This document shows, one piece after another, positions 18,001 to 21,000 of a stretch of 64,000 nt of DNA. This DNA is from Tolypothrix carrinoi HA7290-LM1 (GTDB lineage Bacteria; Cyanobacteriota; Cyanobacteriia; Cyanobacteriales; Nostocaceae). The position numbers are program-made. The DNA is taken from assembly GCA_019358935.1 (NCBI GenBank), contig JAHHIK010000011.1:32001-96000 (forward strand), read 5' to 3'. The number at the start of each line of letters is the position of its first letter. Positions within the stretch are counted from its first letter, which is position 1.

Positions 18001-21000
18001 GCTAGCGCTAAAAGCTGAATTAGAACAGAATCGGTATTCTAGCCGCTTATATGCAGAATCTGCCGCGACGTTTCTCGTCACCCATCTTTTCCACCATTAC
18101 GCTTGTCGCTTGACAAAAGAGCAAATCACAACAAGTGGCTTGCCTAAGTACAAATTACAACAAGTCATTGATTACATTCATGCCAACCTTGACTGTGATA
18201 TTGGCTTGACTGAATTGGCTGACTTGGCTTTGATGAGTCTCTCCCACTTCTCTCGATTATTCAAACAATCAACGGGATACTCACCCCATCAGTTTGTCAT
18301 CAAGTGCCGCGTCGAGCAAGCTCGTGAACTCCTCCTCAAAAGTGATTTGTCGATCGCGGATATCAGTTATCAAGTCGGCTTTGCCAATCAGGGGCATTTA
18401 ACCAATCATTTTAAGCGTCTGCTAGGAGTCACGCCTAAAGTCGTTCGAGAAAAATAGCAGAAACGTGTAAAAAAAGTCAAAACTTGTAAGATTAACTAAG
18501 AGTGCGATCGCTACTTTAGAAATCAGGATGCGCTGCAAGTGTCATTTGCTAGGCTGGATACTTTTATCCACCCTACAAGTTAAAAATTATAGCAGATTGC
18601 AACTGCGTCCTAGAAGTAACAAAACTTAGAGCTTCCAAGGAAAGATATTCTTATGGGAATAAAATTTACCGGCGGTTGTCTGTGCGGATCTGTCCGCTAT
18701 GAATGTTCAGCCGAACCGCTTGCAATGGGCAATTGTCACTGTCGCGATTGTCAACGAGTGACAGGAAGTGCTTATGCTTCCGGACTTATGGTGCCGCAGA
18801 ATACAGTTACCATCACCGGAGATGTGAAATACTATGATGTAATTGGCGATAGTGGCAGCATTGTTGGTCGGGGCTTTTGCCCAAACTGCGGTTCCCGATT
18901 ATTTAGCAAACCCCCAAACCCTGAGCTTATGAACATTATGGCAGGGAGTCTCGATGACCCAAGCTGGTTTAGACCTGTAATGGATGTTTATACAGCCAGT
19001 GCCCAGCCGTGGGATTACATGAACCCGGATCTGCACAAATTTGCCAAGATGCCACCGATGCTTTAAAGTCCCGCGTCATGATGCCTGCCAGACCAACCAC
19101 GCTTCGTCCGCATCAAGAGTGGCAGCCCACTAAAATTGGTCGCTGCAACTTCACAACTATGATTCTCCGCGCTTTTTCGATCCCTTCTCCTCCAGAATAG
19201 ATCAAAAATTCCCTTGGACAAATTCCACAGGCAACTCCAGACAATTTTCTTTACTTACAAACGGCAGTAAAATTAACTCCCAAGCATCACGATACTTAGC
19301 TGAACGTGGTTTACGCTGCCGCTTGTCTGTTTCAACAAAGTGTATTTCGCTACCATAGCTTATGAACACATCTACCGGGAAGATATAGAACAGATCAAGT
19401 TTCTCTATATATACCAAGGCAAAATCAAAGTCGGATTTTTTGTACGCTTCTCTAACCATTAGTCGCCGATTTGTCTTGGTGCGGCGATTATCTACGACAT
19501 AATTACCTGAAGGCTGATCAAACCAGGCATATTTAACTTGGATTTTAATCAGAGTTCCTTCGACATCAAACGCCAAATCGTAAGGAAGGCGATCGCCAAC
19601 GGGCTTTAAAACTCCCCAACCACGCTTTAAGGCATGAAGAATTGCAGCTTGTTCTGCTATGTCTCCTCTTAGCTTTGTGTCCATTTGTTACTTGGATATA
19701 GCTGCTAATCAGCATAAAACAAAACCCTGCAACTTTTGAGTGTTACAGGGTTTTGTTTTTTAAGTTGGTGGCGGGAAGTGGATTTGAACCACTGACCTTC
19801 GGGTTATGCTTACCATCTACAGTTTTCACTGCCTGGATTAACCAGTTTGTGGTCTGGACTGTCCCTTTACCCTCAGCTTTCCTGTTAGGGTACCTGCCTT
19901 CCAGTCTCTACACCTTCTCCATTTCTGGAGCTTGGTTCGGGATTACCGCGCTAGTGGCTTCCCCGAGTTTGACAGGTAATCATACGTAAGTTTCTTTACG
20001 TACCGCCCATAGTAAGACTAACTTTTAAGCGTTTAGTCAATCTTACTCGTTGAGCCCGACGAGCTACCAGGCTGCTCTATCCCGCGTCGTCTTTATTTAC
20101 TATAACCCAAGCTTTTAAATTTGGCAACTACAAAAGTGATAATTCTCCAACAACTTCTAAACGCTTGTATTTCCCGAAGTTCATAAACTTTTCTGACAAA
20201 CTTTGAGCGACGCTGGGGCTAATCCAGCCCATCTGCTGAAGCACATGAATAGCAACAGCGTATTTTGCTCGCTTTGCTCCATCTATGACTTTAATTGCCA
20301 ATCCCATGCCTTCACCAAGTCGAGAAATGCACTGCACTCCTTCGGCACCGGATTTACTTACCAGTTCTCCTGGAGCCAAACGCATCAGTTCTGTATCAAA
20401 TTCTCCGTCTCCCGCTACCAAATTGGGATGATGAGTCATGGCACGGACAATGCGCTCCATATCCAAATTGTTACCCGACGCTAGCAGAGCATATAAAGAC
20501 GCTATTTGAGCAAGTTGCATGAAATAGGTGGGTACACCACAATCATCACGAGCGCTGATAAATTCTTCTGCCGGCATTCGTAGCAATTCTGCTACTTTGC
20601 TGACAATCAATTGCTGGATGGGGTGTTTGCGTTCCAAGTAGTTATTTAAAGGAAAATGGCGCTGCTGACACACGGCTAACATCCCCGCATGTTTACCAGA
20701 GCAGTTGTATTCCAAACGACTTTTTTTACCTTCGGGAATCGGACATTGAAGTGCGCTGGGATCGAGATCGGCACGCCAAAGAATATTAAATGCTTGTCGT
20801 ACCTGCTCGATTGTACCTTTGTGAGAAGATACGATAATTGCTAAGTCGCGATCGCTCAAATCATAACGTTCCAGTGTACCTGTGCTGGTAACAGCCAGTG
20901 CCTGAAATGGTTTGAGGGCTGAACGGACAAAAGTTGCTGTTTCGGCGTTTCCCGCAACGGATAGCACCCGTCCCCGTTCATCGCAGACAACAGCTTGGAC

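Follow-up and report, generated by a model that had tools for sequence, protein, structure and literature searches.

A free-standing I-Ssp6803I-type endonuclease gene and an ORF-less tRNA-fMet intron in Tolypothrix carrinoi as the probable halves of a split composite intron

In a 64,000-nt stretch of contig JAHHIK010000011.1 of Tolypothrix carrinoi HA7290-LM1 (hereafter the window), the initiator tRNA gene is interrupted by a group I intron without an ORF and followed by a free-standing gene for a predicted I-Ssp6803I-type homing endonuclease. We consider it probable that the pair forms a two-part selfish element that arose from a split composite mobile intron. For the narrower proposition, that the free pair of this lineage derives from a split composite and does not represent a stage before capture, we find the case very strong, because gene and intron appear to carry reciprocal fossils in the register of a composite intron and both halves nest among composites in phylogenetic trees. 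The initial annotation had proposed the reverse order, in which the pair precedes capture of the endonuclease by the intron; the fossils and the nesting contradict it. The elements of the locus are as follows.

20128..21081, minus strand: asparaginase II gene, constantly next upstream (in 86 of the 87 genomes inspected)
20099..20127, minus strand: candidate sigma-70-like tRNA promoter, 10 of 12 consensus matches
20053..20086, minus strand: tRNA-fMet 5' exon, 34 nt, terminal base U33
19809..20052, minus strand: ORF-less group I intron, 244 nt, preceded by U33, last base G (19809)
Within the intron, minus strand: guide sequence 20009-20005; P2 20003-19982; P3 19976-19971/19898-19893
Within the intron, minus strand: P4 19966-19962/19941-19937; P7 19906-19902/19861-19857; terminal G 19809
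19766..19808, minus strand: tRNA-fMet 3' exon, 43 nt, CAT anticodon first, CCA last
19716..19759, minus strand: terminator-like hairpin between tRNA and nuclease gene, an inverted repeat that a separate scan missed
19202..19684, minus strand: free-standing PD-(D/E)xK homing endonuclease gene, putative I-Ssp6803I orthologue, 160 aa

Splicing in silico joined the exons into a tRNA-Met(CAT) of 77 nt with an unpaired position 1:72, an initiator trait, and the exons occur as a single copy in the assembly, making this the genome's only initiator tRNA gene. The initial annotation had reported both the 244-nt ORF-less interruption and the absence of this tRNA from the RNA table, and both were borne out: ARAGORN without its intron mode likewise returned no tRNA in the window, so that a split initiator tRNA is overlooked by an annotation run in this way. 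The intron matched Rfam RF00028 at 47.1 bits (E 6e-10; slightly below the gathering score of 50), its predicted fold had z = -4.25 with none of 200 shuffles equally stable, and a U-G pair lies at the 5' splice site (P1). Across Nostocaceae, the guide sequence and the terminal G were invariant in 66/66 introns, and the P3, P4 and P7 cells were paired in 396/396, 330/330 and 330/330 cases, most of them at invariant positions. By its U at -1, terminal G, precise restoration of the tRNA and P3/P4/P7 core, the window intron is a tRNA-fMet-class group I intron. The promoter candidate is a consensus match, from a scan that gave 4 sites against 1.5 expected in shuffles. Elsewhere in this genome, ARAGORN reported a tRNA-Arg(CCT) with a 247-nt intron (G000:C18:56035-56358), the probable source of a second weak intron match, and contig C183 carries a tRNA array.

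The nuclease ORF starts 81 nt past the tRNA end, beyond the hairpin, and its 160-aa product matched Pfam PDDEXK_5 (PF11645; E 1.5e-55) and PDB 2OST (E 6.9e-68, residues 2-141), in agreement with the earlier placement of an I-Ssp6803I orthologue outside the intron, about 80 bp downstream of the tRNA. The window protein is identical to a 150-aa intron-encoded form at 104/140 positions. It retains D8, E11, D36, Q49 and K51, five positions kept in 43/43 intact Nostocaceae genes; D8, D36, Q49 and K51 presumably have active-site roles. E11 is named as an active-site residue in passages of PMC2175346, according to which E. coli yields little of the wild-type orthologue. By family match and active-site residues, the gene is predicted to encode an I-Ssp6803I-type PD-(D/E)xK homing endonuclease. 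The intact genes (43 Nostocaceae loci) encode 139-164 aa, the core dN/dS was 0.091 (IQR 0.075-0.111, 718 pairs), and present nuclease activity seems to us a good deal better than an even bet. By eye, a similar hairpin follows the tRNA in all 43 intact loci, and no clear ribosome-binding site was seen for the gene. A paralogue of ~220 aa (~34-35% identity), which lies away from tRNA-fMet and is widespread in Nostocaceae (G000:C50:36176-36460 in this genome), was excluded from the counts, and a structure prediction (distant relative, mean pLDDT 41) was set aside.

The spliced junction agrees with the core of the oligonucleotide that PMC2175346 prints as the target, and a 23-bp target and a tetramer are given in passages of PMC3384342. 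The genome's closest match to the uninterrupted 23-bp junction carries at least six mismatches; the intact target is absent from the host and present in intron-free alleles. Given its orthology and the published target, the free nuclease would be expected to cut at the intron insertion site. Two loci with intact gene and intron (L288 and L289, in genomes G165 and G020) additionally hold another anticodon arm, whose stem bears a compensatory change of two bases, a candidate cleavage-resistant target variant.

To place the pair within the family, 251 genomes including this one were searched for the protein, the intron (three candidates scored per genome) and the uninterrupted junction, the last search complementing the second. 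The intron was found in 67/251 genomes (one copy cut by a contig end). The junction turned up in 183; as two of these are intron carriers in which the match is a variant site with 2 mismatches, 181 genomes count as intronless, and three have neither. Three rows were left out, namely G140 (gene at a contig edge, no tRNA) and G132 and G176 (neither intron nor junction found). Among the 67 carriers the gene was intact in 43, broken in 15 and not found in 9, some of these near contig ends, and no intact gene was found in the 181 intronless genomes, 19 of which hold a trace, every one beside the tRNA. The two longest such remnants show a frameshift after residue 103 (G021) and a replaced catalytic core (G046). 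The reported co-occurrence of gene and intron was thus recovered in the enlarged set in a one-sided form (intact gene in 43/67 against 0/181, with 24/67 introns lacking an intact gene), and the gene-only cases described beside an intronless tRNA proved to be remnants, since the 19 traces in intronless genomes include no intact gene. The gene depends on the intron but not the reverse, the pattern that would be expected if the nuclease kills hosts lacking protection.

The free gene always lies downstream of the tRNA on the same strand, at 52-135 nt in 30/43 loci and at 236-2082 nt in 13/43. Intact genes span 21 genus codes, kin not being independent, and about one-sixth of the sampled family genomes hold the intact system. 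The genus of the window comprises five genomes with the intact pair, two with intron and broken gene, three intronless with a remnant and one in which no trace was found. These counts bear on the idea that the protein, having originated by a split, at present serves the host or splicing rather than homing, as a maturase-like helper or a DNA-binding regulator. Strong purifying selection and mostly vertical inheritance would suit such a role, but 24/67 carriers do without an intact gene although their initiator tRNA needs splicing; moreover, the catalytic positions are kept and an intact gene never stands beside an intact target, as for an active nuclease. We regard a host role as quite unlikely.

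The direction of change was read from traces that each half appears to carry of the other. In composite introns the ORF sits in P1 (loop L1), overlapping P1/P2, an overlap that is listed in a table of PMC3073962. Two stretches of the window seem to preserve this arrangement.

19227..19285, minus strand: putative fossil of intron positions 23-81 in the gene tail (end of L1, guide, P2, P3 start)
19980..20033, minus strand: putative fossil of the endonuclease ORF 3' end within the intron, reading NA, stop, KLVLLWAVRKETYV, stop

On the gene side, the tail of the window gene aligned with its own intron at positions 23-81 with a score of 37.5 (best of 300 shuffles 32, p<=0.003), and the same pairwise test was significant in 12/24 free loci, one of them in another register, and in 2/5 further loci. 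A profile built from 66 ORF-less introns matched 25/45 tails of free genes at intron positions ~20-100, compared with 0/45 reversed tails and 0/45 gene cores; the window gene scored <5 bits against this profile, passing the pairwise test only. Across Nostocaceae the gene-tail fossil extends to intron position ~96 (P4), and a Floridaenema gene (L190) aligns to intron positions 20-153, beyond its stop codon. Because the copied stretch includes P3/P4, part of the conserved ribozyme core, copying would have gone from intron to gene, and the extended, variable tail of the free protein appears to be made from decayed intron core.

On the intron side, positions 20-73 hold the second of these readings, in which the family's invariant tryptophan is now a stop, and intron-encoded relatives end, for example, in AWDLILQWAARRETCA followed by a stop. 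A matrix from 11 composite ORF ends scored this segment above shuffles in 63/66 introns at p<=0.01, with the caveat that part of the segment is a structural hairpin; it also reaches into an unpaired loop. Four distant minimal introns have a 5' leader of 6-9 nt before the guide sequence, too short for a fossil, and inspection by eye revealed neither a tRNA 5' exon fossil nor one of the intron leader upstream of the free genes. Together, the gene and intron fossils appear to lie in the exact register of a composite intron.

We then considered relatives beyond Nostocaceae. A phylum sample of 401 genomes gave seven matches outside the family, one free and six intron-encoded, the latter in introns of 624-655 nt whose ORF begins 9-22 nt past the 5' splice site. 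Intron-encoded forms were also found in family f6 (7/89) and in a non-photosynthetic class (2/151), and free forms in another order (2/8) and at five loci in three further families of the order to which Tolypothrix belongs. A species-genome scan gave 377 relatives, and the best 80 of these, in a ranking that favours the intron-encoded query, comprise 56 intron-encoded, 21 free and 3 unclear cases and include Omnitrophota, Planctomycetota, Bacteroidota, Patescibacteria and others. The five free non-cyanobacterial cases (L156, L172, L177, L188 and L205) are independent free-standing cases; the pairwise tail test was significant in 0/5, and their polarity is read solely from the trees. At L172 an intron-split tRNA lies on the strand opposite to the free gene. 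One distant PD-(D/E)xK homologue (L140, genome G659; 32% identity) shares sequence positions with a tRNA-Thr(TGT) call and has no tRNA-fMet in its vicinity. The searched viral contigs held no relative and the searched plasmids no match, and phages gave 17 records, of which the 15 listed have 26-40% identity; no transfer vector was found among these three sources.

In a 53-row protein tree, a subsample from which 26 intron-encoded rows and most family rows were dropped by hand and three unclear loci left out, the 13 cyanobacterial free genes sampled fall into a single clade (96/88), itself part of a 100/99 clade that also holds 11 intron-encoded genes. The Synechocystis-type genes group separately (99/95), next to the free clade and not within it. 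At least five changes between the free and intron-encoded states are forced in this subsample, and placing all 18 free rows in one clade was rejected (p-AU 6e-6); splitting appears to have happened repeatedly. The ORF-less introns of cyanobacteria, 68 in number, are nested within the composite introns (97/89) in an analysis whose bootstrap had not fully settled, with the exception of the Floridaenema intron, which groups with composite introns.

These data can be set against the opposite history, in which a free nuclease of independent origin and an intron lacking an ORF came together at one site, with capture producing the Synechocystis-type composites afterwards. The arrangement agrees with the model in print (passages of PMC3984707 and PMC2988022), and distant members lie free beside tRNA genes, as at L140, making an ancient capture basal to the nuclease family as a whole plausible; a first protein tree, from a quick search with a saturated outgroup, does not fix the root. 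Independent origins, the premise of such a stage, predict no common sequence, yet the gene seems to hold ribozyme core and the intron tryptophan-region codons, in composite register, and the trees speak against that premise as well: the Synechocystis-type clade stands beside the free clade, and 56 of the best 80 relatives (of 377) are intron-encoded, albeit in a ranking biased to the intron-encoded query. For the pair of this lineage, we therefore judge a pre-capture history very improbable and favour derivation from a split composite.

Whether the split pair has since been mobile was examined in 39 genomes, in which the trees of gene, intron, asparaginase and rpoB agree on the majority of splits with good support; each comparison that involves gene or intron shows 1-3 shallow conflicts, and the comparison of the two host genes shows none. 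As the trees are mostly congruent, inheritance within the family was mainly vertical, with repeated loss. The suggestion that gene and intron travel together is thus weakly upheld by some signs of exchange, and is tempered by this congruence. The signs of recent homing are weak. Fourfold-site divergence of the gene from that of the window was 0.12-0.15 within the genus, about that of its neighbours. The gene was less diverged than the flanking gene in 44/820 pairs and more diverged in 0, in a comparison where pairs are not independent and base composition differs. Where host distance is intermediate, the introns differ less than would follow from scaling. Against G025, a block of gene, asparaginase and next gene diverged by 0.13-0.19, compared with 0.05-0.09 for most flanking genes and 0.15 for one other. 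Lower divergence of the gene than of rpoB was dropped as evidence of homing, rpoB having about twice the divergence of the neighbours in this genus.

Downstream of the gene, the window holds a direct repeat flanking a cassette.

19126..19367, minus strand: copy 1 of a direct repeat (~240 bp) that takes in the gene's 3' end and a further 76 nt
18653..19066, plus strand: GFA-family gene, in the cassette between the repeats
17549..18457, plus strand: AraC-family regulator, in the cassette between the repeats
17108..17348, minus strand: repeat copy 2, a decayed endonuclease 3' remnant with a 1-nt deletion and 16 substitutions in 241

The AraC/GFA cassette with its repeat (17108-19367) also occurs in G025 and partly in the intronless G168, and is absent from three intact relatives. 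The copy-2 remnant has four substitutions in common with the remnants of G025 and intronless G168 that are missing in six primary-position genes, a pattern that fits re-invasion of the site; the tails of both repeat copies look alike. This arrangement bears on the proposal that the pair, although of split origin, is a non-mobile relic from the family's ancestor that is slowly being lost, for which the congruent trees, the 15 broken and 9 missing genes among 67 carriers and the remnants in 19 intronless genomes can be cited. A dN/dS of 0.09 across deep splits is not neutral decay, though, and a relic would not readily explain a full allele located upstream of a remnant, the latter having substitutions in common with remnants of intronless relatives, or a gene divergence below the flanking gene in 44/820 pairs and above it in none, with the limits on pairs and composition given above. 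We hold the relic reading to be unlikely, and retain that of a probably mobile two-part element.

Genes lying between tRNA and nuclease are common to several genera at a divergence below that of the nuclease, indicating that lateral DNA reaches the locus. Two such genes without Pfam match, of 157 aa (L106:3748-4218, L110, L009, L019) and 304 aa (L120:1943-2854, L114), lie between tRNA terminator and nuclease in different genera with low synonymous divergence, and other cargo at the same spot includes a TumE-family pair (L016) and, by eye, transposase-like ORFs (L117, L118). Further along the window, a 91-nt direct repeat (93%) of a DUF697 gene end surrounds two short ORFs (14828-15761), and a C5 DNA methylase lies at 12975-14219. 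The uptake of lateral genes, some common to several genera, might suggest that the nuclease gene itself came in by chance, at a hot spot for insertion at the tRNA 3' end, and is unlinked to the intron. This is hardly credible given the orthology to a nuclease that targets exactly this site and the distribution of 43/67 against 0/181, and the fossils shared by gene and intron refute it.

RNA data came from contigs of mixed communities that hold about one-fifth of the sampled words. Exon-exon joins occurred in 3/4 RNA runs, for which intronless hosts could be the source; given the mixed communities, neither these joins nor the RNA pieces over the nuclease gene show splicing or expression in Tolypothrix carrinoi. 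In metatranscriptome run X16, a joint of 20039 to 19807 leads from the intron 3' end through 11 letters, similar to the intron start of a relative, to intron position 14. By group I intron chemistry, this circle-type junction of a relative's intron, seen in one contig with a short side of 22 nt, possibly has the shape of a full-length intron circle.

From the anatomy, fossils, one-sided distribution, selection and tree positions described above, we infer cleavage, expression and homing, along with the following order of events. The ancestor would have been a tRNA-fMet group I intron of ~650 nt whose nuclease ORF lay in L1 and extended into P2, the arrangement of Synechocystis. A copy that began at about the ORF start and reached the ribozyme core would have been placed just behind the tRNA terminator, by DNA duplication or via an RNA circle, whereupon the intron may have lost its ORF by internal deletion and the outside copy its ribozyme by decay. 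The intron would self-splice to yield the genome's sole initiator tRNA and would shield the host through its interruption of the 23-bp target in the anticodon arm, and low-level expression of the gene probably comes from read-through of the terminator. The nuclease would cut intron-free tRNA-fMet alleles of close relatives, donor repair would copy the intron, and a longer conversion tract downstream would carry over the gene and anything between. Once targets run out, the gene would decay, after which the intron could be lost and the site re-invaded.

Most likely, then, the pair works in a manner resembling collaborative homing, as suggested by an intact gene in 43/67 carriers against 0/181 intronless genomes, the 19 remnants and a core dN/dS of 0.09. 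For the earlier description of the locus as chromosomal collaborative homing, the layout, purifying selection and lack of any intact gene beside an intact target speak in its favour; its pre-capture premise did not hold. A broader generalization appeals to us tentatively, at somewhat less than even confidence: composite introns on the chromosomes of bacteria may repeatedly (at least five times in this nuclease family) have split into stable two-part homing units, possibly via full-length intron RNA circles copied to a place behind the tRNA, that stay active, cycle through invasion, decay, loss and re-invasion, and carry unrelated genes sitting between tRNA and nuclease.

In the accepted account, a free nuclease and an empty intron combine into a composite, whereas here the direction appears to be the opposite. 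A free-to-intron direction is argued for fungi in PMC7487136, and passages of PMC10448857 (2023) call the origin of collaborative-homing layouts not clear and suggest replacement by a new nuclease. Our data point to a third route, in which the intron's own nuclease gene moved out and left reciprocal fossils; by this route, collaborative-homing layouts would not be ancestral by default, and collaborative homing would, if the broader generalization is true, lead out of the composite state as well as into it. Chromosomal and common, the system has an orthologue of solved structure and known target, and a single genus displays all stages of the homing cycle, making both direction and activity directly testable. 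The literature searched, with primary papers on the tRNA-fMet intron outside its scope, held no description of a free I-Ssp6803I gene or a composite split; an intron-free gene in Nodularia is mentioned in passages of PMC3610870.

The closest known system is I-Ssp6803I with the tRNA-fMet intron of Synechocystis PCC 6803 (PDB 2OST; U10482; 655 nt, 150 aa), which shares host gene, insertion site, ribozyme family and target. The nucleases are orthologous (104/140 against a 150-aa intron-encoded form), and the overlap of the ORF with P1/P2 (in the consulted part of PMC3073962) seems to persist here as a fossil. In contrast to that system, listed as intron-encoded and thus a Synechocystis-type composite in passages of PMC1995217, the ORF of the window lies outside the intron, 81 nt behind tRNA and terminator, the intron measures 244 nt, and the protein has a variable extended tail. 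The intron also resembles the fMet.2Ug tRNA group I introns (Williams, bioRxiv 10.1101/2020.01.27.920355) in its classical site, U at -1 and terminal G; the consulted text of that survey does not discuss nuclease genes outside the intron. The MobE system likewise employs a free-gene partner, a neighbouring gene that mobilises an intron whose own nuclease is dead, but MobE is an unrelated HNH enzyme that cuts away from the insertion site, whereas here the free gene would be the intron's own former ORF. As phage examples of collaborative homing we take F-CphI with the psbA intron of cyanophage S-PM2 and T3 gene 5.3 with T7-like DNA polymerase introns. In phage collaborative homing (passages of PMC3984707 and PMC10448857, with further accounts in those of PMC2988022 and PMC2790892), a free nuclease likewise adjoins an ORF-less intron and has its target at the insertion site. 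The pair described here differs in being chromosomal, in occupying a tRNA gene, in its predicted PD-(D/E)xK fold and in its probable origin by composite split rather than by convergence, with homing deduced from sequence.
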